A stretch of 32,150 nt of DNA, taken from the IMG/VR virus record IMGVR_UViG_3300006103_000048, positions 1-32,150 of that record. One strand, written 5' to 3'. Below the pieces are notes generated by a model. The model saw nothing but the letters and a program-made list of their open reading frames with translations. It was not told where the DNA came from and searched no databases. Made by a program: the position numbers and the translations under genes. The number at the start of each line of letters is the position of its first letter. The first letter of the stretch is position 1. Source of the stretch: a virus. Its lineage: Duplodnaviria; Caudoviricetes. Positions 9,732-27,642 of this stretch are shown here, piece by piece.

Positions 9732-9732
9732 G

Positions 9733-10281: not shown

Positions 10282-11081
10282 TGAGAGCCAATGAATTTAT
10301 CACTGAAGTATTTCAATCAGGTAAAACAAACTGGGAGTGGGCCCGCCGTAGTAGTGATGAAGCCTCTGCGTTTTTTAAGGTAGGTAACAGAGAATATCTT
10401 TGGCAAGCCTTTACAGGTAGCGATCCTAAAAAGTGGGAAATACAATTTCGTTTATTAAGAGATCATGAAAATGATCCAAGTGATTTGGATTTGTTTGGAA
10501 AAACTGGTACTGGAAATTCAACAGAAGTATTATCAACAGCAGTTGATATCACACGTGCATTCTTAAAAGAATATGGCATTGATAAAGTAGAAGAAATAAC
10601 ATTCAATGCAAAAGAAGATAGTAGAATTGCATTGTATGCCAAGATGATTAAACGTTTATTACCTGATTGGGACTTGTATAGCAAAAAAGATCGTCATGAT
10701 GGTATGGTGTTTCATCTTACTGACCGCAGAGCATATGATAAGCCTGAGAACAAACTTAGTGAAGATAAAAGAATAGCGAGGTACAATGGTTTGATTATGG
10801 GATATGCCTTTAACAATACCGGACTGAAAATCAAAGCATACGACCCTGCCACTAGAACTCCAATCGCTTTTGCAGAGTTCATTAAAGAAAATAAAGATTT
10901 ATATCCACAAATGATTTGGGTACACGATGACTATCGTAATAATGGTATTGCTAAATCAATGTATGATTTTCTAAAAGATGACGGTTACGAAATAAATAGA
11001 AGTCATGACCAAACTAATGCCGGCGCCAAGTTTTGGGATAAACACCGTGGAGAAGATGCTTATGTTTGGGAAAACAATTAA
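10281..11081 (+). CDS. Two-domain protein with C-terminal GNAT acetyltransferase, putative internal head protein
   Basis: MRANEFITE leader; VHDDYRNNGIAKSMY (acetyl-CoA motif A); QTNAGAKFW. Confidence 0.7.
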   Translation: MRANEFITEVFQSGKTNWEWARRSSDEASAFFKVGNREYLWQAFTGSDPKKWEIQFRLLRDHENDPSDLDLFGKTGTGNSTEVLSTAVDITRAFLKEYGIDKVEEITFNAKEDSRIALYAKMIKRLLPDWDLYSKKDRHDGMVFHLTDRRAYDKPENKLSEDKRIARYNGLIMGYAFNNTGLKIKAYDPATRTPIAFAEFIKENKDLYPQMIWVHDDYRNNGIAKSMYDFLKDDGYEINRSHDQTNAGAKFWDKHRGEDAYVWENN

Positions 11082-11932
11082 GGTAGTTTTAATAGTTCTT
11101 CAAAACTATACAAGTTTTTCATATAACTTGACACGTTAGACAATACTGAACTTTCAATATCGCCTTTTCTACGTGGGCCAATCTTACGCAATATAGGTGT
11201 AAGAGTTTCTGCGTACAATGCCTCATGATTCACAGTTTTGAACATTTCAAACATCTCTGCAACAGTATGACCAACACCATGTCCCAAGCATTCAATTTGA
11301 TTGCTTGACTTTTCAATTGCAGTCATTAATGCATCACAGATTTCATCTACGTGCACATAGTCACGCACACATGTACCATCAACTGTGTTATAATCGTCAC
11401 CGTAAATTGTAAACTCACGTGTGTAGCTAGACTTCAATAGGTTATACATCAAGCCGTCAGGATTAGTTGGTTCAAAGCCTGAACTACCGATTACATTATA
11501 GAATCTAAAAATCGTATAGGGTGTAGGTTTGTGTTGCGTATAGTATTCACGCACAACATCTTCCGCGGCACGCTTGCTTACACCATATGCACTAACGCAA
11601 CTCTCTGCTGCACCTGTACTAGCAAATACAAAGTTCTTTGTATTAACTTTGTTGATAACATTCATTGTGCCATTCAAATTAGTAATATAATATGGAATAG
11701 GCATAATCTCGCTTTCACCTACGTTAACCAATGCAGCCAAATGAATTACACAATCAAACTCCTCGTCAATAGTGAATAGTCTGTTTATATCTTGGTGATA
11801 AAATTTGTGCATAGATTGCTGAGGATCACGAATATCCAATCCATGTACCTCATACTTCATAGAGTTCATTAGCATCTTTGCAAGATGGCTACCAATATAT
11901 CCTGAACAACCTGTTATCAATACTTTTTTCAT
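11078..11932 (-). CDS. NAD-dependent epimerase (UDP-glucose 4-epimerase-like)
   Basis: GCSGYIG, HLAA, YGVSK, RFYNV, DGTCVRDYVHV. Confidence 0.9.
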   Translation of the reverse strand: MKKVLITGCSGYIGSHLAKMLMNSMKYEVHGLDIRDPQQSMHKFYHQDINRLFTIDEEFDCVIHLAALVNVGESEIMPIPYYITNLNGTMNVINKVNTKNFVFASTGAAESCVSAYGVSKRAAEDVVREYYTQHKPTPYTIFRFYNVIGSSGFEPTNPDGLMYNLLKSSYTREFTIYGDDYNTVDGTCVRDYVHVDEICDALMTAIEKSSNQIECLGHGVGHTVAEMFEMFKTVNHEALYAETLTPILRKIGPRRKGDIESSVLSNVSSYMKNLYSFEELLKLP

Positions 11933-12705
11933 AATCGCAATCCTATAAATTTTCCGTTTTTATCTGTGTACTTCACATAAAGTGCATCCGTAACTTCATC
12001 AGAAGCTATCATATTAAAATAAACAGAGTTTTTAAAATCCATTAGTTTAATGTTTTCATTATACATTTTTTTAATTAAATTAGCAACAATTTTATTATTT
12101 TTCGGACTCATATGACATGTCCTAAAATCAGGAGTGTCTAGTCCGGTAATCTTGTCTGCTAAAATATATGTTTTGCCCTTGAGTGTTACTAGTTCTGTAA
12201 AGCTAGGATGACTAAAATTAACTATAGCTGGGCTTTTAAGGGTATCGTCTAAAATCTCATTTGCATTTTCTACGAAAATATGTAACAACGTTATGCCATA
12301 TTCATTGCAATGTTTTTCTATACTATGTGCAATATTTTTGCAGATAAAAGTTGACAACTCATCTGTGAATAACATATGATTTATTCCCTTGAATGGTTTC
12401 ATAGAATTGTGACTGCCACCAATGTCCCCGTGTCTACCTATAAATTCATCAGGAAGATATGGCCAACGATGCCTAAATGAATGCACAAAAATTATATGGT
12501 CAAACTTTTTGTAGTGTTCTAAAAACTTCTGATAACTCCACCATGCACTAGTACCTCCCCTTGCATGATTTTCATATAATTCAGGTTGGTATGTTTCTAC
12601 TAATAGTTCAGTCCAACCTGGATAATCACGATCACCGCCCCAAGTGTTCTTTTGTGTTTCAGCGTAACTATCCCCGAATATACCTAACTTCATATTAAAA
12701 TTCAA
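11929..12705 (-). CDS. SGNH/GDSL-hydrolase-like protein
   Basis: IFGDSY, NHARGGTS, C-terminal CHMSPKNN. Confidence 0.6.
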   Translation of the reverse strand: MNFNMKLGIFGDSYAETQKNTWGGDRDYPGWTELLVETYQPELYENHARGGTSAWWSYQKFLEHYKKFDHIIFVHSFRHRWPYLPDEFIGRHGDIGGSHNSMKPFKGINHMLFTDELSTFICKNIAHSIEKHCNEYGITLLHIFVENANEILDDTLKSPAIVNFSHPSFTELVTLKGKTYILADKITGLDTPDFRTCHMSPKNNKIVANLIKKMYNENIKLMDFKNSVYFNMIASDEVTDALYVKYTDKNGKFIGLRL

Positions 12706-14041
12706 ACAACCCTGTTCCTGCTATTTCTTCTTGTGGTATAAAAGAAGGATCTTTACTTAAGTATGTATCATTGTCAGTATACAGTACATTGATAAATTTC
12801 TTACGATTACTTAGTACGCTTTCAAAATCTTCACGGGCCAAATGTGTTCTGTTCAAGTCAGTAATATAATCACGATACTTAACAGTATCATATGTGTTAA
12901 TCTTTGCCGAGTTGGTATTACTACGTTTACTTACAAAGTTGTCTACAAAGTTGATCCAACCCTTTGCAACCACGTCATCTAGGTCACAAACATAGTCTAA
13001 GGCGCCTGGTAGTTGTGCTGAACCATATAATGATTTGATAGTTTCACTTGCATCTTTGATATTTACCTTATCGAAGTATCTATCATCAAAATTATCACTC
13101 CAATCTTGATTATCTAAAACTACACAAGGCATGTGTCCTAGACATTCTAAGAATGCAAATGGATAGTTCTCACGCAAACTTGGCATAAAGAATACACTTG
13201 AACTACACACAAAGTCTACTTTCTCCTGTCCAGTGATACCTGCACGGATTTCATAATCAGTAATGCCATTGTCTTTGAATGCTTTTTCAAACTTCTTGGC
13301 ACCATTGCTATTGGTCATTACCTTGCAGGGTAAACCAGCTTCTTTCATTACACGAATGTATGCTTCTGGATTCTTGCCTTCTTCCCAACGACCAATAAAC
13401 AACACACCTTTACGGGTACCTGTATATGGTTCTAACAAACTACGTTCACTCATTGGCATTCGTAATAATGCACAGTTAGTAGCACCGTGTTTAGTCAACT
13501 CATTAATATTCTTTTGACTTTGTGTACCAATAACAATATCACTAAACTCCATATGCTTGTTATAGAAGTTATGATAACTATTTAGGAATACATCACTGCC
13601 CTGACTTTCACGGAAAATCATACTATGCAAGTGAGTATAGAATACAACAGGAATATATTCGTTGACTGTCATAGCATATGCCGCAGTCATTGCTTCCTGT
13701 GTGTTACACACAATCATGTCATAGATGTTTGTTTCAAAAGCCTTTAATAATGCTTTGCGAAAGTTAATAATCTTTTCAAAGTTAATAGTGTCACTAAAGG
13801 CAAAAGTGGCAGTGTGGTCACTATAACGCAATGCATCATCTGGATAAACAATATTAGCACCCGCAGATTCAATCACAGTATCAAAAGACCCAGTAGGTGC
13901 TTTGTCTAGAATGATATCAACTTTCCAACCAATACGACTACACATTTCTGTAAAACTTTTACAGAAACTACCAATTCCCCCATGAGGGATAAAGTGTTGG
14001 TCACTAATTAAAAATGCAATTCTGCGAGAGTAGATGTTCAT
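12695..14041 (-). CDS. GT-B glycosyltransferase (GT4-like)
   Basis: HGGIG, FIGRWEEGKNP, PSLRENYPFAFLE (Ex7E). Confidence 0.85.
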   Translation of the reverse strand: MNIYSRRIAFLISDQHFIPHGGIGSFCKSFTEMCSRIGWKVDIILDKAPTGSFDTVIESAGANIVYPDDALRYSDHTATFAFSDTINFEKIINFRKALLKAFETNIYDMIVCNTQEAMTAAYAMTVNEYIPVVFYTHLHSMIFRESQGSDVFLNSYHNFYNKHMEFSDIVIGTQSQKNINELTKHGATNCALLRMPMSERSLLEPYTGTRKGVLFIGRWEEGKNPEAYIRVMKEAGLPCKVMTNSNGAKKFEKAFKDNGITDYEIRAGITGQEKVDFVCSSSVFFMPSLRENYPFAFLECLGHMPCVVLDNQDWSDNFDDRYFDKVNIKDASETIKSLYGSAQLPGALDYVCDLDDVVAKGWINFVDNFVSKRSNTNSAKINTYDTVKYRDYITDLNRTHLAREDFESVLSNRKKFINVLYTDNDTYLSKDPSFIPQEEIAGTGLFEF

Positions 14042-14511
14042 TTAGTATCAAAAGGCCAAGTGCCTGCTTTAAGTGAAAGTTTTTCGTCAAACACCTCTTC
14101 CGAAAGTTCTGCTTCGGGCTGTTCAACAACATTACCCTCTTCATCTTCAATAATGATATCACAGTCAATAATCATTTCACATTCAGTTTGCATCCAACCA
14201 TGCTCTTCTAAATCAAAGTAAGAGTTTTCTTCCAAGAATTCTTCTAACCATTCTTGTGTTTCTTCATCACATTCATCACTATCAACCTCTTCCCAGCAAC
14301 CATCAAATGTTTCAACTAGTTCAACATCATAGTCACAGTTATAGAGGTCAACACCTGGTTCTAGTACAGGAGGTGTATCGTCTTCTGTTTCAATAGTAAA
14401 CTCACCACCACGCCAACCTGTTTCAATCATAACGGTGTTATCGTCTTTGGTGAAATATTGACGTTCAATAAGTGATTTCTTCCATGCGGGTTTAATTGTC
14501 CAAATTGCCAT
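14038..14511 (-). CDS. Highly acidic hypothetical protein
   Basis: Asp/Glu dominate the C-terminal two thirds. Confidence 0.8.
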   Translation of the reverse strand: MAIWTIKPAWKKSLIERQYFTKDDNTVMIETGWRGGEFTIETEDDTPPVLEPGVDLYNCDYDVELVETFDGCWEEVDSDECDEETQEWLEEFLEENSYFDLEEHGWMQTECEMIIDCDIIIEDEEGNVVEQPEAELSEEVFDEKLSLKAGTWPFDTK

Positions 14512-14512
14512 T

Positions 14513-14749
14513 TTAATTTCCTTTCAATTTCCAAATTAAATGTTCATGCTTGTTATGCCATCTGTATAGATATACAGGATCACCGGGACCAGTGATCATC
14601 TTAGTAAATTTATAACCATTCTCTAACCAAATCCTTTTTCCTGACAAGTCGCAACGCTTAGGCAGTAGTGCAAATGAATACTTTATTGTGGCTGTTTTGT
14701 AAAACCAAATATCGTCTTGCGCTTTATAAAAAGGAATATCTAACATCAT
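14513..14749 (-). CDS. Small hypothetical protein, paralogue of 14759..15010
   Basis: FALLPKRCDLSGKRIWL motif. Confidence 0.75.
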   Translation of the reverse strand: MMLDIPFYKAQDDIWFYKTATIKYSFALLPKRCDLSGKRIWLENGYKFTKMITGPGDPVYLYRWHNKHEHLIWKLKGN

Positions 14750-14758
14750 AAAGTTCTC

Positions 14759-15010
14759 TTATACTAATTCTAATAATCTTAATTTAATAAATTGATCTTT
14801 AGCCATCCACTTGTACTCAGTAAAAATAGCCATATCATGTCTACGCCTTTTCTCACCACGATATGCATTTTTCAACCAAAGCCATTTACCTGTTTCAAGG
14901 CATTGATGAGGGATAAAACAAAACTTATATTCCCAGTTTCTAGTCTTTCGCTCATACTCTTGCCTAGAGATTTCTTGATATCCGTCAGTCTCTACCATTA
15001 TGTTCCCCAT
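14759..15010 (-). CDS. Small hypothetical protein, paralogue of 14513..14749
   Basis: FCFIPHQCLETGKWLWL motif; start uncertain. Confidence 0.75.
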   Translation of the reverse strand: MGNIMVETDGYQEISRQEYERKTRNWEYKFCFIPHQCLETGKWLWLKNAYRGEKRRRHDMAIFTEYKWMAKDQFIKLRLLELV

Positions 15011-15843
15011 TCATTTTTGAACAGTGGTACTTGCAGTCTGTCACTATAGCGCCAGCCACGTTTCATTGCGGCTAGTGCAACTGACTTAGCATTGAGATTG
15101 TAAACAAACTCAACACCGCCAACAGGCATAAGATATACGTGACCTGTAAAGCCCGCTTTTCTATATTGTTCAACTGCTTGTTCTGCATCTTTAACATCCT
15201 CTTCTGTTGCTACTACAAACTTCAAATATGCTGTACCGACTTCTTCGTATGTACACACAATCTCAGGCTTAATTGCGTCTTCCCACTTTTCGCCACTTGC
15301 TGGAAGTTTAGCACTTACTGAGAATGTGATTTCGTTATCAAAACCATTACCTACCCAATCGTGTAAGTATTCTCTAAACTCAGGAGTTAACTGCTGAGTG
15401 CCATTAGTTTCAAATGTAATCTCTTTAAGACCTTCCATCTTGGGATGATCAAGTAATTCAGGATAAGCACGTTGCCAGCCTAGCAATGGCTCACCACCTG
15501 TGATAACCAAATGCTCATCACGCCACTCACCGTAAGGAAGTGAAAGCATAATTTCATTGACAATGGCATCTGTTGTACACATATAACTTAATTGTTTAAA
15601 GTCAGGATGCCAACTAGCATAACTATCACAACCAGTTGATACTAGTGGCAAATGTTTATAGTCATTATATAAATGTGCAACTTGTCCGATATCGTCTGCT
15701 TCTACGCTAGACATGCCACGAGGCATACCAAAGCCCTGACATTTAAAGTTACAACCATATGTGCGCATGAACACACTTGGAACCCCCATGTAACGACCTT
15801 CGCCTTGTATACTATAAAACAGTTCTGAAATTTTAATGCCCAT
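14998..15843 (-). CDS. queE: 7-carboxy-7-deazaguanine synthase (radical SAM)
   Basis: ELFYSIQGEG, R..GCNFKC...CDS, VITGGEPLL, FETNGT, LKFVV, RLQ. Start moved to ATG 15843. Confidence 0.93.
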   Translation of the reverse strand: MGIKISELFYSIQGEGRYMGVPSVFMRTYGCNFKCQGFGMPRGMSSVEADDIGQVAHLYNDYKHLPLVSTGCDSYASWHPDFKQLSYMCTTDAIVNEIMLSLPYGEWRDEHLVITGGEPLLGWQRAYPELLDHPKMEGLKEITFETNGTQQLTPEFREYLHDWVGNGFDNEITFSVSAKLPASGEKWEDAIKPEIVCTYEEVGTAYLKFVVATEEDVKDAEQAVEQYRKAGFTGHVYLMPVGGVEFVYNLNAKSVALAAMKRGWRYSDRLQVPLFKNEWGT

Positions 15844-16010
15844 TATTGATTCCAATGTTTGATTACGCCTGCCACGATAAAACAGTTTGTTATAATATAT
15901 GATAACACAATCGATGTGCGAATGCAAGCGATAAGGTCTGCTTCACTATCAGTATCTCCGGCTTTTTCGCCCAATGCTTTTGCCCAAAGACGCCAAAGTT
16001 TATCTACCAT
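15843..16010 (-). CDS. Small membrane protein, 55 aa
   Basis: Manual translation MVDKLWRLWAKALGEKAGDTDSEADLIACIRTSIVLSYIITNCFIVAGVIKHWNQ; TAATG-coupled to queE. Confidence 0.8.
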   Translation of the reverse strand: MVDKLWRLWAKALGEKAGDTDSEADLIACIRTSIVLSYIITNCFIVAGVIKHWNQ

Positions 16011-16212
16011 ATTTCTTTTCTACCTGATCTAAAGTTCTTTTTGCTAGTGCACTTGCTGGATGGTCTTTGTACATTCTTGCAATGTCATCCAATGCAGTCC
16101 ACATAAGTTCGTGTTCGTTTTGTATAGAGTACACACGGTTTCTTAGATTACTAGCATCATATATGCTCATAATGCTAGTAACCAATTTAGCAAGAAACCG
16201 TGCGAGTTCCAT
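16000..16212 (-). CDS. Hypothetical protein
   Basis: TAATG-coupled to queD. Confidence 0.7.
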   Translation of the reverse strand: MELARFLAKLVTSIMSIYDASNLRNRVYSIQNEHELMWTALDDIARMYKDHPASALAKRTLDQVEKKYGR

Positions 16213-16709
16213 TAAGAGAGCAAGTCCTCATTCCATTCACGATGACCTTCACGGAATGCCATATTAGCCTGCGTTTCACGAACCTCTACACGATAGCACC
16301 ATAGGCGTTGTGCTTCGCCTGGGCCCCACATGTCAGGGATATAAACACCATTGACATACTTGTAAAGCATATCTGCTAGACTTTCACATCCTAAGCGTGA
16401 CAGTATAGTTAGTTTAGCCATTTTCTTTTCTTGCAACAATTTAAATGTTTCAAGTTCAGGGTCATCTTCTGCAACTAATAAGGTATGATCAAACTGATCC
16501 TCAAGAATCTTTTTCAACTCTTTTAGTCCACCGTAGTCTGCTGCCCAATTACGAACATCTAAATCGTTTGTACCGAAATAGAATTTCATACTGAAACTAT
16601 AACCATGTATAGTGTTGCAATGACTGTCTGCACGCCATTGACGATAAGCGCATGGGAATGCGTCTACATATTCTTTTGTACTTGTGTACTTATAAACGAT
16701 TGGTTGCAT
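16212..16709 (-). CDS. queD: 6-carboxy-5,6,7,8-tetrahydropterin synthase
   Basis: CxxxHGY (HCNTIHGY), DYGGLK, FDHTLL, VRET; AGGAG RBS. Confidence 0.9.
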   Translation of the reverse strand: MQPIVYKYTSTKEYVDAFPCAYRQWRADSHCNTIHGYSFSMKFYFGTNDLDVRNWAADYGGLKELKKILEDQFDHTLLVAEDDPELETFKLLQEKKMAKLTILSRLGCESLADMLYKYVNGVYIPDMWGPGEAQRLWCYRVEVRETQANMAFREGHREWNEDLLS

Positions 16710-16782
16710 AAATTTTCTCCTATGTTAATTTTAGCATAGGCAGCAGAATTTGTAAAGCGGGAATGATGCCAAAAGACCGCTG
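16710..16782 (-). ncRNA. Candidate preQ1-I-like riboswitch / pseudoknot in the queD 5' UTR
   Basis: AGCGG/CCGCU stem, loop UCUUUUGGCAUCAUUC, tail UUACAAA...UGCC complementary to loop GGCA; CCUAUG/CAUAGG hairpin covers the SD. Confidence 0.55.
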
Positions 16783-16790
16783 TAAAATAC

Positions 16791-17342
16791 TTAATTATCC
16801 CAATTAAATCCAGGTTTTTGTTTTTTTAACCATGACCGCATTGTATCGGTAGTAACTCCTTCAGCATTGGCGGCATCAGATAAGCATAAAAATTTTCCTT
16901 TGGGAGTGACTACTTTTTTTGCTCTAGGGTTATTACCGCCCATTTTAATTTCTTTAAGATGTTGAAGCGTTTCAATAGAGTGCTTTTTTCCGTAAAAAGA
17001 ATTTTGTTCTTTTGTTTTTCCAAATTGTGGATTCATTACACCTTTAAGGCCCGGACTTCCTACTGGTTTACCATCTTTTCCATTTTCAGGTCTAAGATTG
17101 GCCCACTCAGTAGATTCAACGATGTTATATTTTTCTGAAAATTCTAAAGCAAATTTCTCACATTCAGTTTCATCATCGAACTTCCAAACTTGTACTGTAT
17201 CTATGTCTTGGCCGTGTACCTTCAAATGTCGGCGCCAATGAGTTCCCGATCCTAAATATAAATAAGGATCCTTAGTAGATGTTTTACCGAAGTATTTCAA
17301 TCCAGTTACCTTGTGTTGTTTTACATATAGATATATAGTCAT
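16791..17342 (-). mobile_element. Free-standing GIY-YIG (Seg-like) homing endonuclease with NUMOD3-like repeats
   Basis: IYLYVKQH..TGLKYFGKT..DPY.YLGSG; NPQFGK / NSFYGKKHS / NNPRAK; own CATAAATA promoter at 17358-17365. Confidence 0.85.
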
Positions 17343-17372
17343 AATTGCCTCTATATCTATTTATGCCTAATT

Positions 17373-17406
17373 AGCGAATTGAAGCCGAGGCCGCTATCTT
17401 TATTTA
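17373..17406 (-). promoter_or_regulatory. TAAATA late-type promoter followed by a degenerate copy of the queD leader stem-loop
   Basis: GTAAATAAAGAT-AGCGG-CCTCGGCTTCAAT-TCGCT. Confidence 0.55.
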
Positions 17407-17825
17407 CCTTTTGTAATTTCTTGTGCCAAAAAATCACTGAGGTTACCTACATCACAGAACTTATCTACCCTACATTGGTAGTCAATTGGTTCTGTAAACA
17501 TCTTATTGGTATCATCGTATATACCCATATCGATGGTGTTCATCCATACAGTATAGTCTGGTTCAATGATACTACGCATTATACTTAATGGACAAACCAT
17601 ATCAATGATTACATAATCTGTGTTTGATGAATCATCTGCTAGTTGTCGCATACGTGTTGCTTGTCGCAATCTACCCTCAACACTAAAATCCCAATCATTA
17701 TATTTTTCTCTAATGGTGTCAGCATTTAGCCAAAGTACTTTTGTTTCAAAGAATAATTGGGCAGTGAGTGCTGCTGCCAATGTGGTCTTGCCCGATCCCG
17801 GTAAACCCATAATAAGAATTCTCAT
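17400..17825 (-). CDS. Adenylylsulfate-kinase-like P-loop kinase
   Basis: GLPGSGKTT, LNADTIR..DWDFSVEGRLRQ. Confidence 0.75.
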   Translation of the reverse strand: MRILIMGLPGSGKTTLAAALTAQLFFETKVLWLNADTIREKYNDWDFSVEGRLRQATRMRQLADDSSNTDYVIIDMVCPLSIMRSIIEPDYTVWMNTIDMGIYDDTNKMFTEPIDYQCRVDKFCDVGNLSDFLAQEITKGK

Positions 17826-18043
17826 GAAAAATCCCTGACAATGATTGTGCCATAACTAGGCGAAAAGGTTTTGCAGCCAACATGCTTAATGGCAGCTTGT
17901 ACTAACTCTATCATTTTGATGCTGTTACCGCAAATGATAGTAAGTGGCATTTTACTTTGATTCATTAGAATAAAGTTTTCTACTATTCTAACTACATCTT
18001 CATGTCTAACACCATGTAAATCTAATTTATTGACATAGTTCAC
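17822..18043 (-). CDS. Stand-alone Smr-domain protein
   Basis: LDLHG...IICGNS. Confidence 0.75.
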   Translation of the reverse strand: MNYVNKLDLHGVRHEDVVRIVENFILMNQSKMPLTIICGNSIKMIELVQAAIKHVGCKTFSPSYGTIIVRDFS

Positions 18044-18228
18044 ACCAAATCCTCAAACATCTTTTTTCTACCTTCGATACCCAATTGGCTATCAAAGATT
18101 TCTGTAATACGTTGCAACATTGCACAAGCAAACATCAATTCTTCTTCACCGTTTTGGCACAAGAACAGTTGATGGTTTACTGGTTGCATCATGTCATGCA
18201 TTTTTTCTTTAATTTTTTCTCTATCCAT
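18040..18228 (-). CDS. Hypothetical protein
   Basis: ORF overlapping both neighbours. Confidence 0.7.
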   Translation of the reverse strand: MDREKIKEKMHDMMQPVNHQLFLCQNGEEELMFACAMLQRITEIFDSQLGIEGRKKMFEDLV

Positions 18229-18763
18229 TTAAATTCCTTACGTCAAACATTAGATGTAATCTAACACTATCTCCGTTATTTGCAACTGAGTGTCTTAAAT
18301 TTGAATCAAATCTATACATGGAACCTAAACTATCTACATTATAGTTTACATTACCTACAATGAAAACGCATTTGTCATTAGTTGTAATAGGCATATGAAA
18401 TCTATAACCTGCATAATCAATATGAGGTTCTATGTTTCTTCCCGGATATAACGCTGCATATTTAATACGTGTTGCGGTGAGATTTATCGTGTTCAACCAA
18501 GTCTCTACCAATAAACAAACTTCTTGTGTATATGTGTTTTGAAATTTTTTTAATATCTTTTTAACACTATACCAATTATTGTTAACATTTTCAAATGCGT
18601 CTAACAAATAATAATCTTCGTCTTTTTCATTAGTCTTAGATGTTGCACTATTAATTAAAAGTCTGCTATATTTACCACCATCAAAATTTAGTTCGTGGTC
18701 AATTCTATACCATTCTTGATATAATTTTTCGCAGTCAATATTAAATTCGTGCAATTTTTCCAT
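18221..18763 (-). CDS. Asp/Asn beta-hydroxylase-like 2OG-Fe(II) oxygenase
   Basis: PHID, RFHMPITTN, HSVAN, RLHLMFD. Confidence 0.8.
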   Translation of the reverse strand: MEKLHEFNIDCEKLYQEWYRIDHELNFDGGKYSRLLINSATSKTNEKDEDYYLLDAFENVNNNWYSVKKILKKFQNTYTQEVCLLVETWLNTINLTATRIKYAALYPGRNIEPHIDYAGYRFHMPITTNDKCVFIVGNVNYNVDSLGSMYRFDSNLRHSVANNGDSVRLHLMFDVRNLNG

Positions 18764-18766
18764 TAA

Positions 18767-19234
18767 TCATTTAGCTAGTTTAGTTTGTGCTTCTGCTACA
18801 CGCTTACGCAAACTTGTGCTACTGAAACTATGGTCACGACCATTGAATACAATATCAATACCACGGTGATAACATGCTTCGTCACCGGTAAATTGTTTAC
18901 CTTCGTATTCTACTCCCAAGATACGAACATTCAATGGCAGAATCAATAGTAAGTCAACCAAGTCTTGCTCAGTTTGATATACTACTACTTCGTCAACATA
19001 GCGACAGGCACTCAATTGAATTTGACGTTCTACAATACTTTGAATAGGTTTATTCTTGGTATCAGGACGATCAATAGTTGGATCAGTTTGCAAACCAGCA
19101 ATCAAATAATCACAATGATTCTTTGCTTCACTAAGCATGGCAATATGTCCGGCGTGTAATAGATCAAAGGTACTAAAAGTAATACCTATTACTTTTTCTT
19201 GTTCTCTAAGTTCTTTAATTTTGTTGAATATCAT
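18767..19234 (-). CDS. Glycerol-3-phosphate cytidylyltransferase-like (TagD-like)
   Basis: TFDLLHAGH (HxGH), ERQIQL..CRYVDEV, SSTSLR. Confidence 0.85.
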   Translation of the reverse strand: MIFNKIKELREQEKVIGITFSTFDLLHAGHIAMLSEAKNHCDYLIAGLQTDPTIDRPDTKNKPIQSIVERQIQLSACRYVDEVVVYQTEQDLVDLLLILPLNVRILGVEYEGKQFTGDEACYHRGIDIVFNGRDHSFSSTSLRKRVAEAQTKLAK

Positions 19235-19380
19235 TTTCTATAAAAATTAATTGTGTGTTCTTTTGGGTGTTTAGAACAATTACCCGATCTGTCACAGTCA
19301 CCGCATATGGGTTTACGTAAGTGTTTATATATTCTATATAATGCAATGCCTACAATAAACCCAACTATTAGATATTCCAT
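19231..19380 (-). CDS. Small TM + Cys-rich peptide, 49 aa
   Basis: Manual translation MEYLIVGFIVGIALYRIYKHLRKPICGDCDRSGNCSKHPKEHTINFYRK; ATGA-coupled to the next gene. Confidence 0.7.
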   Translation of the reverse strand: MEYLIVGFIVGIALYRIYKHLRKPICGDCDRSGNCSKHPKEHTINFYRK

Positions 19381-19390
19381 GACAATCCCT

Positions 19391-19630
19391 TTATCTTTTT
19401 AGGATATTCCACATATTTTCTTGTTCACATGCTTTAATGAATTCAGCTTCTGACGAACCAAAATTAGGACAATCCTTTAAGATGCTATCCACTAACCACT
19501 TGATTTTATATAAATCTTTTTTAAGTTCTAATGCAGTAAAGCCATCATTCCTAGAACTATTTAACTCTACACCAGTCATATAGATTTGATGATTTACTGC
19601 ATTATAGTCCATTGGTTTGCGAAATCCCAT
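19391..19630 (-). CDS. Hypothetical protein
   Basis: Start moved to MGFRKP at 19630 (AAGGA RBS). Confidence 0.7.
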   Translation of the reverse strand: MGFRKPMDYNAVNHQIYMTGVELNSSRNDGFTALELKKDLYKIKWLVDSILKDCPNFGSSEAEFIKACEQENMWNILKR

Positions 19631-19631
19631 A

Positions 19632-19751
19632 TTATTCCTTACATTTACAATTACGACCTTGATTACAATCTTGTGTGCAATCACTCTCGGGTAGTCTGCG
19701 AATAATTGAGATAGCAATGCCTAACACAATCAAAATAAGTAACAGATTCAT
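19632..19751 (-). CDS. Small TM + Cys-rich peptide, 39 aa
   Basis: Manual translation MNLLLILIVLGIAISIIRRLPESDCTQDCNQGRNCKCKE; ATGA-coupled to folE. Confidence 0.65.
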   Translation of the reverse strand: MNLLLILIVLGIAISIIRRLPESDCTQDCNQGRNCKCKE

Positions 19752-20425
19752 TTGCCCATCCTAGCAATAGACAAGAATTCGCTACGTGCCGCTGGATCAG
19801 TTTTGAAACCACCACCTAAGCGACAAGTAACAGTAGAGCTACCTGTATCCTCAACACCACGTGACTTTACGCAATAATGTTGTGCATCAATCATTACCGC
19901 AACATCTTCAGTCTCCAGTATAAATTGGAGAGTGTGGAAGATTTGTTCGGTGAGTCGCTCTTGGATTTGAGGGCGCTTACTGAAATACTCAACAATACGG
20001 TTAATTTTTGATAATCCGAGGACTTTCTGTTTAGGAACATATGCCACAGTAGCGAGACCATCAATGACAACAAAGTGATGTTCGCAATTACTTTGCACAT
20101 TAACGTTGCGTTCAACGACCATTTCATTGTAATGCATCTTGTTATCGACAGTCGTACACTTTGGAAATGCATCATAATCTAACCCCCAAAAGATTTCATT
20201 AACGTACATTTTAGCAACACGCTTGGGTGTTTCAATAAGACTATCATCAGACAAATCTAAGCCCATAGTTTCCATGATAGCTTTGAAATGACCCTCAATG
20301 ATGTGAATCTTATCAGTACGAATCAATTTGTTTGGTGTTACAGGTGTCTCAACACCCATTTTGACTAAGTGTTCATGCACTCGTAGACCTAATTCTGGAT
20401 CAGTTTTTGTTTTATTATAACTCAT
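19748..20425 (-). CDS. folE: GTP cyclohydrolase I
   Basis: ETPKRVAKMY, CEHHF, GLSKINR, RPQIQERLT, HYCVKSRGV. Confidence 0.96.
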   Translation of the reverse strand: MSYNKTKTDPELGLRVHEHLVKMGVETPVTPNKLIRTDKIHIIEGHFKAIMETMGLDLSDDSLIETPKRVAKMYVNEIFWGLDYDAFPKCTTVDNKMHYNEMVVERNVNVQSNCEHHFVVIDGLATVAYVPKQKVLGLSKINRIVEYFSKRPQIQERLTEQIFHTLQFILETEDVAVMIDAQHYCVKSRGVEDTGSSTVTCRLGGGFKTDPAARSEFLSIARMGK

Positions 20426-20429
20426 AGAT

Positions 20430-20498
20430 AACCTTCCGTTGTGATGGTTTTTGTTTTGAAATGTAAGCTACCGTTGTGTAGCTTACATGATTATTTAT
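20430..20498 (-). promoter_or_regulatory. folE leader: ATAAATA promoter plus two hairpins with identical ACAACG loops
   Basis: Perfect 11-bp stem 20461-20488; second stem 20430-20449 includes the GGAAGG SD. Confidence 0.65.
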
Positions 20499-20779
20499 CA
20501 TTTATTTTTCTTTGCATTAACTTTATAATAGGCTTCATCGAACAATTTACCGATATAGTCATCATATACAGGGCTATGAAAAGTTTCTAGATCCATGCAT
20601 GGTTTTTTATACTCTTCGTCCCACCAACTAGGAGGATCGGTATTTGTACCTAAAATGTTTAAGCCCATATTAAATCTGACAAGAGAGCCGGTCATTCCGT
20701 TTTCAATGGTATCAGGCGATGAATTTTCTATGAGAAGATCGCATCGTCTACGTAATTCAGACATTACTATTTGATCCAT
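20498..20779 (-). CDS. Hypothetical protein
   Basis: ORF in operon context. Confidence 0.7.
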   Translation of the reverse strand: MDQIVMSELRRRCDLLIENSSPDTIENGMTGSLVRFNMGLNILGTNTDPPSWWDEEYKKPCMDLETFHSPVYDDYIGKLFDEAYYKVNAKKNK

Positions 20780-20781
20780 AG

Positions 20782-20982
20782 TTAACCCTTACTTGCTGCT
20801 TTTTCTGCGGCACGTGCGTTTTTAGTTTCAGTGATTTCATTACGGCGAGCCTTAACTGCCTTAGCAAGTTCTGCTAATGCTTTACGGGCACGTGTGCCTG
20901 CGGCTGCGTTGCCTGCTTCAAACTTTGCAGATTCAGTTTGGTATGCTGCCATTTGTGTTTCGATATCTTGATGTGCGCTCAT
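20782..20982 (-). CDS. Histone H1-like Hc1-family nucleoid protein
   Basis: KFEAGNAAAGTRARKALAEL. Confidence 0.8.
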   Translation of the reverse strand: MSAHQDIETQMAAYQTESAKFEAGNAAAGTRARKALAELAKAVKARRNEITETKNARAAEKAASKG

Positions 20983-21182
20983 AGTTTTTCCTTTGTTTTG
21001 CGTTTTGTTTTTGCCTTTACGGCCTTAGTTTCAACACTAGCGATTGCCTCACGAACATCTCGCAATAGTGCTTCATCATCCCATTCCAATTTAGTAGTAC
21101 CGTCTGAAAAAGTAGTTACAGTTAAGTGACTACCTCTGACGACACCACTTGGATCAATTGTTTTCTTTTTACGTGTTGCCAT
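20979..21182 (-). CDS. Small basic hypothetical protein
   Basis: Lys-rich termini. Confidence 0.75.
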   Translation of the reverse strand: MATRKKKTIDPSGVVRGSHLTVTTFSDGTTKLEWDDEALLRDVREAIASVETKAVKAKTKRKTKEKL

Positions 21183-21195
21183 AAGTTATTCCCTA

Positions 21196-21960
21196 TTATA
21201 CGATTGTATCATACAACATATTTTTTTCAATCAAATAGGGTATAATAACTCTATTTGTTAGTTCTATATGTTGTTCTGTACTAGGGTGTGGGTCTGGTGG
21301 TCGAGCAAAGTCTTTGCCGGATATAAATCTACACCATTGATAGCAGTTTTCAATTGGTAACCAACATGACTTATCTATTTGATTCCACAAAAATTTAATT
21401 TCTTTGTTATCTTTCCATTCTTTATTGAAGGGGAATTCATCGAATGCAGCATAATCAAACTCAGTCATAAAATAAGGAATGTTGTTTGATTTTAAAAACC
21501 ACTGGACTCTTAATATATGCTCAAGTGTATTGATTAAACTATCTTCAAAATTATAAGAATTTTTAAAGAAGTTTGTAGTCAATGGGTCATTCCAATGCTC
21601 ATTAATAATGTACCATTTTGATTCTTGAGTATAACCCTTTGCAGGATTAGAATAAGAATCGTGGCCAAAGCCTAATTCATTACATTCTAACGGTTTAATT
21701 GAATAATAATCTCTTCGTTTAAAACTACTCCACATAATACCCACTAACATTTCGTTAGGCTTATATGTTTCAAGATGTTTAGTTACTTCCCTAATTACTC
21801 TGCGACTAATCATTCCATTACCCGCCGCACCTAATCCGGTATGACTAACCGATTCAGGTTTGATATAGTTATCTAAGTGATGAACCCAATTAATATCACG
21901 ATTATTAGGTTGGCTAAAACTACAGCCACCAGTAATTAAACATTTCACATTCTTTGCCAT
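21196..21960 (-). CDS. SGNH-hydrolase-like protein
   Basis: GGCSFS, GAAGN, IMWS...R, DPHPS (DxHP). Confidence 0.65.
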   Translation of the reverse strand: MAKNVKCLITGGCSFSQPNNRDINWVHHLDNYIKPESVSHTGLGAAGNGMISRRVIREVTKHLETYKPNEMLVGIMWSSFKRRDYYSIKPLECNELGFGHDSYSNPAKGYTQESKWYIINEHWNDPLTTNFFKNSYNFEDSLINTLEHILRVQWFLKSNNIPYFMTEFDYAAFDEFPFNKEWKDNKEIKFLWNQIDKSCWLPIENCYQWCRFISGKDFARPPDPHPSTEQHIELTNRVIIPYLIEKNMLYDTIV

Positions 21961-21962
21961 TA

Positions 21963-23033
21963 TTACCCTGCATAAACTCTGTTGTATTGATTATTTACAC
22001 GAACAAAGGTAGTGCATTTACTTAATTGTTTCAATGATGGTGCTCCTACATATGTGCAACTACTACGCAGTCCACCAAGAATGTTTAATACAGTATTCTT
22101 TACAGGGCCACGATATGGCACACGTACAGTACGACCTTCGCTACTACGGTATTCAGCAACACCACCTGAATGTTTTTCCATAGCAGTATCGCTACTCATG
22201 CCATAGAATTCCACAAACTTTTTAACGTCAATGTCATGTGTATAATTATCTTTTTGTAGTTTGGGTAGTTCATACAAGTCTTCAATAACATTACCACCAC
22301 CTTCATCATGTCCTGCAAACATACCACCGAGCATTACAAAGTCAGCGCCCGCACCGAAAGCCTTAGCAACGTCCCCAGGACAAGTGCATCCGCCATCAGC
22401 AATAATGTGTCCACCAAGACCGTGAGCGGCATCGGCACATTCAATAATAGCACTAAGTTGTGGGTAGCCCACACCAGTTTGAATACGAGTAGTACAAACG
22501 CTACCAGGCCCAATCCCAACTTTAACAATGTCCGCACCACGTAAAATTAACTCCTGTGTCATGTCTGCTGTAACAACGTTACCAGCAATAATTGTTTTGT
22601 CCATAAACTCTTTACGAACTTTAGCAACAAAGTCTCCAAAATGTTCACTATATCCATTGGCAACATCAATGCAAATAAATTTGATATTAGGATTTGCAGA
22701 CAAAATAGTAACTAAGTTTTGATAGTCTTTGTCACTAATACCAGTGCTTACTGCCAAACGTGTATAATCAATGTCATTGTTAAAGTCATCATTGTTGTAT
22801 GATTTGACCAAACAGGTAAACAATTTATGTTCACTTAATGTTTTGCTCATCTCAAAAGTACCGACTCCATCCATGTTAGCAGCCATCATGGGTACACCGG
22901 TGTACGTCTGTTTACTATGTCTAAATGTATAAGTGCGGGTTAAATCAACTTCTTTACGACTAGCAAGTGTACTACGTTTAGGACGAATCAACACATCACT
23001 AAAATCTAACTTAACTTCATTTTCAATACGCAT
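21963..23033 (-). CDS. guaC: GMP reductase
   Basis: [57 protein letters not shown]. Start moved to 23033. Confidence 0.95.
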
Positions 23034-23034
23034 T

Positions 23035-24222
23035 TTAATACTTTCTTTCTTTAGTATGTTTACGATAATTTGTATCCATACGCAATAGTTGCTGACCACG
23101 ACCTTCTAAGATGTTACAGATACGATCAATGGTACCTGCTGTGTGATCACTAATCTTATCAACATTAGGATGTTGTACAGTTAATAGTTTATGTAATTTT
23201 TCAATAGCATCATCAATAGACCATGGGATATACAATCGTTCAGGGTCATTACCAAATGTTTCGGGGAAACTACGATATGCAGGATATAAAACATTACAAC
23301 GCAATGCATCTGCTTCGCTTACAGTATTACTTACCCAGTCTTGCAATGCACAGTTAAACAACACACGTGTGTCATTCAGCAACAGATAGTAATTGGTCTT
23401 GTCTAAGTTTTCATAGACTTTAAGTGTACCCTCATCACGCATTCTGTTTGTGCGAGCCATGTAACTATTGTTGTTACTACGTAAAGTGCTACCACTGAAT
23501 ACACAAAATTCTACATCAGAGTCTGGATATAAGTCATTCCACTTGTCAATCAAGTCCATGTAAAAGTCTGGTTGTTTTTCTTGATCCCATCGTGCGGCGA
23601 ATGCTACACGCATAGCACGTTCATTAAACAACTTAATGTCTTGTCCACTGTCAAGAACTCTGCGTCTTACTTCTTCTTTGCCAAATGCTAATCCACTGAT
23701 GTTATAGATTGGTGCTTCCCAGCCTGCAATCTTCATGTGCATTACCATTTCTTCATTACTTGCAAGTACACCGTCTACGAATTCATTAACCATCTTTTCG
23801 TAGAGACCCATCCACTTTGACATACCCCAAACATGAACAAAGTCATCCGGATCAATGGACTGAGCAAGGCAACGTACAAAAACACGAGGGCGTAAGTTGT
23901 CAGGAATTTGATTGAGAATATAAGGTATGCTCTCAATACCGGGCTGAAACATATCTTCAAAGTAGATAACATCTTCATTTGTAATTTCTCCTTCTTTCAT
24001 CATTTTAACCAAATTCATCATCTGGCTCATACCAAAATAACTACGACCATGTGCATCTAATACTTGCCCAGTAACAATGCTCTTGCTACTATCAAGTGTA
24101 TCTCCCGGCACAATAATATAATTAATACCGCGGCGCTTGAATACTTCAACGTTCCAGTCTGTTAGTTGAAGTGTGTATCTGTCTTTATAAGGCTCTAGGC
24201 CCATGTAATATAGTTTTCTCAT
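23035..24222 (-). CDS. GT-B glycosyltransferase (divergent GT4-like)
   Basis: [33 protein letters not shown]. Confidence 0.75.
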
Positions 24223-24416
24223 TTTATAAATCTCGGAATATGTTCTACTGTACCTGCATATTGAAATGAATCTAGCATGGGCAACAATGTTGCTAGGTCA
24301 TTTACAGGGTGACGCTCAATGTACTTGTGTTCCCCGTCAATTAACATAAAGTACAATTTGATTGTACCCTCGTCTACTTGTGGTTTAAATATATATTCTA
24401 AATCTTCTAATATCAT
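24219..24416 (-). CDS. Hypothetical protein
   Basis: ATGA overlaps on both sides. Confidence 0.7.
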   Translation of the reverse strand: MILEDLEYIFKPQVDEGTIKLYFMLIDGEHKYIERHPVNDLATLLPMLDSFQYAGTVEHIPRFIK

Positions 24417-25174
24417 ATATTTTTTCTCTCAATATCTTCTTCAACACATGATGATCCATATTGAACTTCAAGTATGTGACAATAGTCATAATAGTTATTT
24501 TGACCTTGATGCCAAACACCTTGTGAAATATTATATGTTTCATTTTCCTCTTTAGATATTACTATTATATCATTATTGTATATAGTTGCAATATCGCATT
24601 TACCCTTAAGTATATACCAATGCTCACTACGTTTAAAATGGCGTTGCATACTTAAATTCTTACCGGGTTCGATTACAAGTTCTTTAACTTTGTAACCAAT
24701 CTTGTCATCTAACACACGATACCATCCCCATGACCTATAAGTTTTAGGATTCTTCCATTCTTCTAATATCCAACTACTGCTGTTCTTTTTGTTTGTTCCA
24801 CCAACACCAAATACAAATTCAATGTTATTATCAACAATATCCATTTCAGGGATATTTTGTTGAGTGCGATCACCACCGTTGGCAAATACTATTTTTGCCA
24901 TGGGCCACATCTCACGAACTTTGTTGATAGCATCTTTACTGCTACCATCACTATCATTAAAATCTATAACAACATCTACATTTTTTAATGATTCAATAAT
25001 TGCCTTACGCTCAGACAACGGCATGAATGGTTGACCTTTTTTACGAGTCAACCATTCATCGCTATTGACACCTACTACTAGTGTGTCGCCCAATTCACAT
25101 GCAGACTTGATATACTCTAAATGTCCACTGTGAACTGGGTCGAACCCACCGGTGATCAATACGATTTTACGCAT
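24413..25174 (-). CDS. Cytidylyl/adenylyltransferase (RfaE-II-like) fused to a mannose-6-phosphate-isomerase-type cupin
   Basis: GGFDPVHSGH, FANGGDR, NSSSWIL; RSWGWY, LSMQRH..RSEHW, WHQ, EVQYG..EEDIER. Confidence 0.88.
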   Translation of the reverse strand: MRKIVLITGGFDPVHSGHLEYIKSACELGDTLVVGVNSDEWLTRKKGQPFMPLSERKAIIESLKNVDVVIDFNDSDGSSKDAINKVREMWPMAKIVFANGGDRTQQNIPEMDIVDNNIEFVFGVGGTNKKNSSSWILEEWKNPKTYRSWGWYRVLDDKIGYKVKELVIEPGKNLSMQRHFKRSEHWYILKGKCDIATIYNNDIIVISKEENETYNISQGVWHQGQNNYYDYCHILEVQYGSSCVEEDIERKNI

Positions 25175-25385
25175 TGAAGCGGGGTTTAGCATCTAACTCC
25201 CACATATCCTTGAAGGGTTTGCCTGTTACGGCTTTTTGAAATTGACGCCACACGTAACTACGTGTGCTGTACAAATCGTTCTCATCGAACTTATAACCAT
25301 AATCCTTACAGAATTCTAAATAGAATTCCAAATCGTTGAAGATTTGATTGACCTTAGGATTTTGTTTGTGTTCGTACTTAGCCAT
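25167..25385 (-). CDS. Hypothetical protein
   Basis: AAGGA RBS. Confidence 0.75.
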   Translation of the reverse strand: MAKYEHKQNPKVNQIFNDLEFYLEFCKDYGYKFDENDLYSTRSYVWRQFQKAVTGKPFKDMWELDAKPRFNA

Positions 25386-25394
25386 GATTTTCCT

Positions 25395-25844
25395 TTAAAC
25401 GCTAATAAGTTGCGGTTTATGTGTTGAATAATAAATTGTAGCACCGTTCTCACCATCTTCGCTTACAGTGATTTCGATGTTACGCTCTGGATATCGACTA
25501 GCAATGACTTCATAAAGGTCATCACTAATCATTTCACAACTCTTGTAATTCAATTCAAGAATACCCTGAGAGTATTGATTCTCAAGCCATCTCTTAAATT
25601 GAATAAACTCAATATCCCTATCGTTGTGAAATACTTCAATCGCCACATTAAAGTGAAAGATGTGACGATGTGGAGTTCCTAGAAAACAGACATCATATTC
25701 ATCACCCGTTGCAAGTGATGGGTCAGTTGCGGCTGCTGGATAGCAATGAATACCTTCTTTTTGAAAGGTAACAAAGATCATACGTTTAGCCTGTTCTTTA
25801 ATTCTGTTGCGTGTTAGCAAGTGTGTTTGTTCTTGATTGTTCAT
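25395..25844 (-). CDS. QueD-paralogue T-fold enzyme, DpdL-like (putative CDG decarboxylase)
   Basis: EGIH, LGTPHRHIF (LxxxHRHxF), RDIEFI, SCEM, VSEDGENGA. Confidence 0.7.
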   Translation of the reverse strand: MNNQEQTHLLTRNRIKEQAKRMIFVTFQKEGIHCYPAAATDPSLATGDEYDVCFLGTPHRHIFHFNVAIEVFHNDRDIEFIQFKRWLENQYSQGILELNYKSCEMISDDLYEVIASRYPERNIEITVSEDGENGATIYYSTHKPQLISV

Positions 25845-26094: not shown

Positions 26095-27642
26095 TCAATC
26101 AATGATGTTAGCCATTTCATCGTCGGCGTCTTCGATAACTTCGTCTTGTTCAGGCTCTTGCTCTGTTGCAAACAGTTGATCAAACATAGTCATGGCATTA
26201 ACAGTACGCTTGCCACTAAATCCTTGACTACCTGATTGCACTTGAGTCCACAACTTTGAATTTGCTTTAATCAAATCCAAACTCTTTTGTCTATTATTTA
26301 GACTAAAAATCTCATCAATGATGGTACCCAAATGATTTTCATCAAATTTGCTCATAACCATCTTGGGCATAATACCCATTTCATATTTACGATTGGCTTC
26401 TTGAACCGCAGTAATATGTTGATAAACATTGTGTGCTTGCAATAGTGTATAACTCAATGTATCCCAACTGGTTTTAGTTTCCTTACCTTGTTGGTTGATA
26501 AAGCCATGACCACGATAACAAAGGTCCTTAACCATCATACGGTCAGTAATTGGGCTATCTGTAAACATTTTGTGAATGCCATCAGCCAATACTGCATCAC
26601 TAAACTTGCGAGTGTCATTGGCATAGTTTTTATTCTCAGCAGTCTTTTCCATACTATATGACCACTTGCCACCATGCTCGATGTTATTGTTAAAATATGC
26701 CAAACCTTTAGCCGCACTAAAGAATGGGCTTGCACAGTCAAAAGTAATCTGTAAGTTTGGGTTATGATATTTGCGAATAGCACGTTGAATGTCTGTAAAC
26801 AACACAGCATATTCCATGATACTTACACCCAAACAGTGAATCAAATCATGCTTGCCTTCTTGTAATAATCCATCGTGGATAATACCAACAAGGCGATTCA
26901 ACATCAATTCAACATCAATCTTGTTCTGACCCCCGAATGCCCAACCATTGAAATGACTATCAGGATAGATTTTTGGGTCACAATATTTTTTCATTTCTTC
27001 ATACCAGCTATCACTTTGACTGTGATTGCGACCTTGAAGAACATTTAAGAACTTACATTTACCTGTACGGTTCTTGATAAAGTATTCGTTGTTAATATGT
27101 GTGGCAGTAATTGCTTCTTCAATGGTACTGATACCATGTGCAGAAGTTTTAGTTTTGGGGTCTTGGATATGAAATGTGCTTAATGATTGTGAAGGAATAT
27201 CTAAACACATACCATAATCCATGTATGTGTCCATCCACTTCAATACTTGCTGACGCTTTTTCATAGCACGTGGGCAGTTGGGATCCTTCCAATCAGCAGG
27301 CCATTGACATTTAAGAATTTGAAATCCACCACTATCACCCAACATGAATGTACCTTCTTCACGTTTGCGAATAATACTTTCATTATGGTCATCAACAGTT
27401 GTATCTAAATTAGCATGACCAGCACTATACAAGCCCCATTTATATGTGTATAGACCTTGCTTGCTATTCAAAAAGTTCAAGCATTCAACATCTCCATTGA
27501 AGCCTGCAGGAATACGTGCACTATCAAAATAGTTTTCGCCTTCACGTTGTTTACCCAAGCCAGCAATAAAGAAACTGCTAACCGCGGGTAAGAATAGTGC
27601 CCAGTCTGGTTTATGCTGTGCTGATAAGTTAATTTGATTCAA
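26095..27642 (-). CDS. TGT-fold guanine transglycosylase, DpdA-like
   Basis: GDSGGFQ, LDIP, VLQG, GWAFGG, HCLG, TFDCASP and late HN: the ordered TGT motifs. Confidence 0.85.
   Translation of the reverse strand: MNQINLSAQHKPDWALFLPAVSSFFIAGLGKQREGENYFDSARIPAGFNGDVECLNFLNSKQGLYTYKWGLYSAGHANLDTTVDDHNESIIRKREEGTFMLGDSGGFQILKCQWPADWKDPNCPRAMKKRQQVLKWMDTYMDYGMCLDIPSQSLSTFHIQDPKTKTSAHGISTIEEAITATHINNEYFIKNRTGKCKFLNVLQGRNHSQSDSWYEEMKKYCDPKIYPDSHFNGWAFGGQNKIDVELMLNRLVGIIHDGLLQEGKHDLIHCLGVSIMEYAVLFTDIQRAIRKYHNPNLQITFDCASPFFSAAKGLAYFNNNIEHGGKWSYSMEKTAENKNYANDTRKFSDAVLADGIHKMFTDSPITDRMMVKDLCYRGHGFINQQGKETKTSWDTLSYTLLQAHNVYQHITAVQEANRKYEMGIMPKMVMSKFDENHLGTIIDEIFSLNNRQKSLDLIKANSKLWTQVQSGSQGFSGKRTVNAMTMFDQLFATEQEPEQDEVIEDADDEMANIID

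Follow-up and report, generated by a model that had tools for sequence, protein, structure and literature searches.

Whether a phage can place a sugar on 7-deazaguanine in its DNA is the question raised by a 32,150-nucleotide virus record (IMG/VR IMGVR_UViG_3300006103_000048; Duplodnaviria, Caudoviricetes), in which a deazaguanine gene set (folE, queD, queE, dpdL and dpdA) is interleaved with two genes for GT4-like glycosyltransferases (GTs) of the GT-B fold, here termed GT1 and GT2. The record as a whole, referred to below as the window, is a 32-kb fragment of a large-phage genome, and its close relatives are IMG/VR contigs of 300-520 kb. A sequence-only reading of the window had proposed that a nucleoside diphosphate (NDP) sugar or a polyol is attached to the deazaguanine base. 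The present analysis makes it somewhat more probable than an even chance that the phage DNA bears a sugar-carrying 7-deazaguanine in place of some guanines, the reactions themselves being inferred. The genes first needed for this argument are the following.

26095..27642, minus strand: DpdA of the long type, a predicted DNA guanine transglycosylase (515 aa; DSGGFQ at residue 103; clamp-type peptide at 486-491)
25395..25838, minus strand: DpdL, a QueD paralogue and proposed decarboxylase of 7-carboxy-7-deazaguanine (CDG) (LxxxHRHxF; tblastn matches to the DpdL of phiST, ACP17 and PA5oct)
23035..24222, minus strand: GT1, a predicted retaining GT4-like GT-B enzyme and putative core partner of DpdA and DpdL, without a clamp tail (donor-site residues R211, K216 and D295-x7-E303 kept)
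19748..20425, minus strand: FolE, GTP cyclohydrolase I (NCBIfam match over the cut-off)
16212..16709, minus strand: QueD, 6-carboxytetrahydropterin (CPH4) synthase (PF01242, phrog_2389, CxxxHGY motif)
14998..15927, minus strand: QueE, CDG synthase of the radical S-adenosylmethionine type (phrog_2076; NCBIfam QueE models below their cut-off)

FolE, QueD and QueE are all recovered in the window by Pfam, PHROG and NCBIfam. Residues 53-61 of the window DpdL, which is 34% identical to that of phiST, form the LxxxHRHxF motif in place of the CxxxHGH of QueD, and this motif is the DpdL signature as defined by Cui et al. 2023 (PMC10516641). The dpdA gene lies outside the interval 11078..25844 delimited by the sequence-only reading, yet belongs to the system. 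Its product has no match to the Pfam tRNA-guanine transglycosylase (TGT) family by itself and is 36% identical, over ~80% of its length, to QCG76197 of PA5oct, which is filed as DpdA3 in DS1 of PMC10516641. No QueC is found in the window, itself a fragment, or in three complete relatives, and partial matches over the cut-off occur in 3 of 27 records.

The GT1 family comprises 486 clusters at 50% identity (E up to 1e-10), and its close subfamily occurs on an estimated 1600 or so IMG/VR stretches. A total of 598 loci were confirmed; of the 80 closest, 78 carry dpdL and 75 carry dpdA. Conversely, GT1 is present in 48 of the 49 dpdL loci with at least 4 kb downstream, the other 31 of the 80 being left out as too short. 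A dpd gene is likewise found in 55/57 loci of a second GT1 subfamily. The linkage extends to a mostly divergent set of 159 loci, at ~30% identity to the query and with a few members from the clade of the window: all 72 with at least 3 kb on both sides carry a dpd gene (DpdA in 67, DpdL in 59), although 40 of the DpdA assignments among the divergent loci depend on one cluster with an xDSGA motif, which we take to be DpdA1-like. The link between GT1 and dpd genes persists across differing gene orders, phage types and DpdA types. Thus, the family of the GT at 23035..24222 and the dpd genes are not independently distributed, and phylogenetic profiling supports the proposal that this GT-B enzyme acts on deazaguanine. 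A gene family of 150-170 aa, not seen in the window, adjoins the GT in ~60 divergent loci (clusters of 41, 12 and 7; for example, L428:633-1076).

The same linkage, across unrelated phages and bacteria, bears on the suggestion that the GTs, the epimerase described below and the nucleotidyltransferases glycosylate host lipopolysaccharide or a virion protein and owe their position to chance or to a habit of the clade. Jumbo phages do carry sugar gene clusters of such a kind (PMC7824862), and the two nucleotidyltransferases of the window are RfaE/TagD-like and lie >100 kb from GT1 in one complete relative (G003); for these two genes, the explanation may well hold. For the system as a whole, surface or virion glycosylation, which the sequence-only reading had named as its alternative, is a poor fit to the linkage and to the clamp-type tail of GT2, and is considered highly improbable.

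Cultured phages were sampled as 13 of 29 DpdL phage records, one per lineage. Six of these encode a GT1 family member genome-wide (BUCT-ZZ01, ACP17, X1, Paride, Phosso and BCSR5), which in every case lies within about 5 kb of dpdL and directly abuts dpdA or dpdL. PA5oct carries a dpdA-GT-dpdL trio, and the gene between the listed dpdA and dpdL of both ACP17 and PA5oct is the GT. The dpdA and dpdL of ACP17, expressed without the intervening GT, yielded no 2'-deoxy-7-deazaguanine (dDG) in E. coli, and the authors considered that further enzymes are possibly required (PMC10516641); the string "glycosyl" is absent from the main text of that paper, as is "glycosyltransferase" from its supplement. 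Within the dpd-GT clusters of BCSR5 (L090:7384-10132) and X1 (L003:10338-11950) are genes resembling 3'-phosphoadenosine 5'-phosphosulfate reductase, accompanied in BCSR5 by a PIG-L de-N-acetylase; such genes would be consistent with further tailoring of an N-acetylhexosamine.

In the five GT-bearing cultured phages for which DpdA was aligned, the protein is long and contains DSGGxQ, whereas five GT-free phages have a short DpdA without it; DpdA of the GT-free phage Roos has DSGLF, and no DpdA was found in Bakedbeans. In the Faecalibacterium phage Roos (L092:7019-8887), a YhhQ transporter gene accompanies dpdL and a DSG-type dpdA, and no GT is present. In GT-free DpdL phages, the short DpdA (259-290 aa, with DNGAG or DNSxF for DSGGxQ) adjoins a nucleotide-kinase-like gene (L004:8317-9577, L093:7276-8543, L089:7432-8882 and L091:7692-9094), which hints that full replacement of G of the phiST type occurs at the nucleotide level before replication, contrary to the published post-replicative view. 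The phiST dDG system (PMC10516641) thus shares with the window FolE, QueD, QueE, a DpdL with LxxxHRHxF, a DpdA and the lack of a visible QueC, whereas it has a 259-aa DpdA with DNGAG, a kinase-like neighbor and no GT, in place of the 515-aa DpdA with DSGGFQ and a clamp-type peptide and the two GT-B genes of the window.

The association also reaches bacteria: in three alphaproteobacterial islands (L306:7481-10760, L307:6013-9050 and L308:5850-9056, from Azospirillum, Ochrobactrum and a Rhizobiales genome), dpdA, a Vut_1 (YhhQ-family) transporter gene and the GT gene lie side by side. By eye, these cassettes are near integrase-like open reading frames (ORFs), and the hosts encode a QueC and a tRNA TGT of their own.

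GT1 and GT2 are likely retaining GT4-like GT-B enzymes for which sugar transfer is predicted. GT1 alone has no Pfam match; its predicted structure (pLDDT 80) is a GT-B fold with MshA, PimB', OtsA and BshA as the nearest solved structures in Foldseek, and the nearest ESM Atlas clusters are almost all viral. These solved enzymes (GT4, and OtsA) share the two-Rossmann GT-B fold and the R-x4-K and acidic-x7-E motifs at 10-15% identity. In 115 diverse members of the GT1 family, R15, R60, D90, D127, R211, K216 and P218 are invariant and E303 is nearly so; the acceptor domain holds invariant Arg, Asp and aromatic residues of its own, including R15, R60, D90 and D127. A sequence match of either GT to the T4 alpha- and beta-glucosyltransferases (AGT and BGT) is absent from Pfam, PHROG and PDB searches, and a viral model from S-TIM5 named "DNA alpha-GT" ranks 20th among the fold matches, like other GT-Bs. 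The GTs of the window resemble retaining GT4 enzymes and not the T4 DNA glucosyltransferases, which the sequence-only reading had cited as GT-B enzymes.

Two features of GT1 would also suit a GT-B-fold accessory of DpdA or DpdL that binds a nucleotide or base and transfers no sugar: E-x4-RYT replaces the GG loop of GT4 enzymes, and this subfamily has Asp for the initial Glu of E-x7-E (D295-x7-E303). Nevertheless, R211, K216 and E303 are kept, members of other subfamilies retain E-x7-E and exceed the cut-off of PF00534, and GT1 is immediately followed by an epimerase gene in a subclade without GT2 in the fetched flank, so a non-transferring accessory appears quite improbable.

A direct connection to DNA is suggested by the second GT, for which four further genes have to be considered.

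29473..32142, minus strand: family B DNA polymerase with a C-terminal clamp-type peptide (family matches and tail comparison)
28662..29393, minus strand: likely sliding clamp and predicted dock for the DpdA and GT2 tails (phrog_12062, unnamed; the syntenic Phosso gene is annotated as a sliding clamp)
12695..14041, minus strand: GT2, a canonical GT4-type GT-B protein with a C-terminal clamp-type tail, considered an accessory (GG loop, R218/K223, E291-x7-E299)
11078..11932, minus strand: GalE-like NDP-sugar epimerase, a putative partner of GT2 (best NCBIfam match galE, below the cut-off)

The GT4-type GT-B fold of GT2 is predicted by its model and Foldseek. A queE or queD gene is present in all 46 of the 80 GT2 loci with at least 5 kb upstream, and the epimerase follows GT2 in 70/73 loci with enough downstream DNA. 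GT2 is also in or near the dpd cluster in the T4-like BUCT-ZZ01, L293 and L300, so the link is not one of clade synteny alone. The C-terminus of GT2 is disordered in the model and contains [LF]F within the last 8 residues in 76/81 sequences, and, when a profile of the polymerase tail is run against 44 families of this clade, the two GT2 families rank next after the polymerase. In BUCT-ZZ01 and L300, the ends of both GT2 and DpdA resemble the T4 clamp peptide, which is SLDFLF in the T4 polymerase (PMC12746103). The clamp-type tail is thus clear in DpdA and in the GT2 of BUCT-ZZ01 and L300, and weaker in the GT2 of the window. The resemblance to the tails of DpdA and the polymerase is suggestive of DNA as the substrate of GT2. 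Additionally, DpdA2-type proteins of T4-like phages (L002:10721-11995, L003:13109-14422 and L001:13346-14596) end in a clamp peptide like that of their own polymerase (ACP17 and X1), which suggests a replication-coupled base exchange.

The tail of GT2 points to DNA and does not specify the base, and the GTs may share only a neighborhood with the dpd genes while modifying a hydroxymethyl-C, a hydroxymethyl-U or an oxidized base, which is most plausible for GT2, homologues of which are found away from dpd genes. To our knowledge, all sugar-bearing DNA bases are hydroxymethyl-pyrimidines. Nevertheless, four GT-bearing cultured phages (BUCT-ZZ01, ACP17, X1 and BCSR5) have no gene of the thymidylate synthase family (PF00303), which matches once per genome at full length in the remaining phages searched, and therefore no hydroxymethylase of that family. 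Tet_JBP has no match in 18 records in a search without a positive control, and GT1 is always accompanied by a dpd gene where the flanks are long. Another DNA base as the acceptor is accordingly improbable.

In the favored reading, in which the sugar is carried by 7-deazaguanine in DNA, FolE, QueD and QueE would produce CDG, DpdL would process it, and DpdA would swap the processed base into replicated DNA, where GT1 would transfer a sugar to it from an NDP-sugar. As GT1 lacks a clamp tail, it could alternatively modify the base in its free form, before DpdA inserts it. The clamp-tailed GT2 and the GalE-like epimerase would then add a second sugar, from an epimerized NDP-sugar, in lineages that have them. 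The purpose would likely be to shield the DNA from restriction enzymes and from glycosylases that recognize the bare deazaguanine. The acceptor has a little less than an even chance of being a group at C7 (either the oxygen of the carboxyl or a handle that DpdL would produce); exocyclic N2 or O6 is a distinctly weaker candidate, and C7 itself, giving a C-glycoside, is unlikely, as is any other position. The widest form of this scheme, a two-step, clamp-coupled disaccharide on DNA 7-deazaguanine as the first glycosylated DNA purine, with hundreds of GT clusters and a bacterial dpdA-transporter-GT version that imports the base, is put forward as a tentative and rather doubtful extension.

Several observations weigh against a sugar on deazaguanine in DNA. 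The loci are not independent samples, several being near-duplicates; the dpdL locus L133 has lost GT1; and 7 of the 13 cultured DpdL phages have no GT1 family member, among them phiST, the DNA of which carries plain dDG (PMC10516641). A search of the three cassette-bearing bacterial genomes, run without a positive control, finds no DpdL, so the partnership of DpdL with GT1 is not an obligate one. Chemically, bare 7-deazaguanine offers no hydroxyl to a GT4-type enzyme if DpdL removes the carboxyl; the acceptor must then be the CDG carboxyl, an exocyclic atom or C7, or DpdL acts otherwise than proposed. GT2 is accessory to the pathway: it is absent from G003, one of the three complete relatives, and missing from 68/72 divergent GT1 loci, and distant homologues without the tail occur in X1, 40 kb from the dpd genes, and in an Erwinia phage without GT1. 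Its polymerase-tail scores are low (medians of 4.7 and 1.7, versus 18-20 for the polymerase and 15.3 and 8.1 for the terminal 45 residues of DpdA), and QueE (85/106) and QueD (39/98) match the loose tail pattern as well, which makes the tail evidence suggestive only. The neighborhood of a distant GT2 homologue in the Erwinia phage pEa_SNUABM_1 (L094:6213-12524), with a methyltransferase, DUF1611, a pyridoxal phosphate enzyme and an asparagine-synthase-like gene, is a different tailoring cluster.

The remaining adverse points concern GT1 itself. Its net charge is -10, and this acidic composition does not suggest the basic DNA-binding groove that had been envisaged; a clamp tail is found in 2/189 sequences by the loose pattern, and the polymerase-tail profile scores -8.6 in the last 12 residues. 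Its listed PDB fold neighbors act on small molecules, lipids or glycans, and T4 AGT and BGT are not among the listed Foldseek PDB matches of GT1 or of GT2. An acidic, tailless enzyme resembling small-molecule GT4 enzymes could glycosylate a soluble pterin or deazaguanine intermediate, for storage, detoxification or protection from host QueC and TGT, with the sugar never reaching DNA; the transporter in the bacterial cassettes and a pterin glucosyltransferase at rank 29 among the fold matches of GT2 would agree with this. However, GT1 adjoins dpdA also in loci that have no synthesis gene in the vicinity (L306-L308), it is absent from all five short-DpdA phages, and GT2 has the clamp-type tail, so a soluble glycoside is regarded as unlikely.

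As for the donor, three further genes had been read as its supply.

24413..25192, minus strand: HIGH nucleotidyltransferase fused to a cupin of the mannose-6-phosphate isomerase type, a presumed passenger (family matches)
21963..23033, minus strand: GuaC, GMP reductase, a presumed passenger (NCBIfam match over the cut-off)
18767..19234, minus strand: TagD/RfaE-like nucleotidyltransferase, a presumed passenger (family matches)

These genes do not travel with GT1, and the role in donor supply is not sustained. In the close GT1 loci, some of which are truncated, the nucleotidyltransferase-cupin gene is present in 34/80, the TagD-like gene in 46/80 and guaC in 17/80, versus 1/72, 2/72 and 1/72 in the divergent set; a profile of both nucleotidyltransferases (HIGH-type) matches 6/219 divergent GT loci, and BCSR5 has no PF01467 gene. 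In our reading, the nucleotidyltransferases and guaC are passengers here, and the donor-supply candidates may serve surface glycans. Of the two donors proposed, the NDP-sugar agrees with the NDP-sugar GT4 folds and motifs of both GTs, whereas the polyol finds no counterpart, as no TagF-type enzyme is among the listed fold matches. A reading of the GTs as CDP-polyol phosphotransferases (TagF/TagB) was rejected on these grounds: the Pfam scan of the window gives no PF04464 match, and no gene of this family is found in five related genomes, with the positive control matched in 3/14.

The minus-strand order is family B polymerase, likely clamp, dpdA, dpdL, nucleotidyltransferase-cupin, GT1, guaC, folE, TagD-like gene, queD, queE, GT2, SGNH-like ORF and GalE-like epimerase. 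The genes that had been described as immediate neighbors are all present, although less directly adjoined: ORFs of 72 and 65 aa lie inside the stretch from dpdL to the GT of the dpdL-to-guaC run (gaps of -26 to +9 nt), the TagD-like gene is set apart from folE by an ORF of 108 aa and a gap of 156 nt, and three small ORFs precede GT2 after queE, with the SGNH-like ORF before the epimerase. The 72-aa ORF after dpdL (25167-25385) has no family match and is kept in 74/80 close loci. Elsewhere in the window are a homing-endonuclease-like ORF just upstream of queD (16791-17342; phrog_314, NUMOD3) and a histone H1-like ORF of the Hc1 family (20782-20982; PF07432). At 8112-11081, the minus-strand run is broken by three plus-strand ORFs (GP88 family, unknown and GNAT-containing), the last two of which share the start MRAxEFITE.

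Other systems decorate 7-deazaguanine in nucleic acid. DpdM (methyl) and DpdN (formyl) tailor the deazaguanine after insertion, on the preQ1 amine, and the vertebrate QTMAN and QTGAL glycosylate the diol of queuosine in tRNA; the substrates of all four need QueC or QueF. DUF3524 is not returned by any Pfam scan made here. The T4 glucosyltransferases are also GT-B enzymes that transfer sugar onto a modified phage DNA base after replication, and they form a pair of which one binds the clamp, as the alpha-enzyme co-purifies with gp45 and the beta-enzyme does not (PMC13216743). They act on 5-hydroxymethylcytosine, whereas the acceptor predicted for the window is a purine analogue that needs no hydroxymethylase, and the folds are GT4-like.

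No report of a glycosylated deazaguanine was found in the literature searched, with subscription papers, Iyer et al. 2013 and bioRxiv supplements outside its scope; if true, it would constitute a new base and a new GT chemistry. A role of the GT could account for the failed reconstitution with the dpdA and dpdL of ACP17. The DNA of PA5oct, a jumbo phage of the therapeutic type, is restriction-resistant, which suggests a modified G, mass spectrometry being reported for other phages only in the available text (PMC12191111), and a sugar-bearing base could account for this modified G. Since bacterial glycosylases are described that excise bare 7-deazaguanine (10.1101/2025.10.29.685425), a sugar on the deazaguanine may be the answer of the phage to these enzymes.

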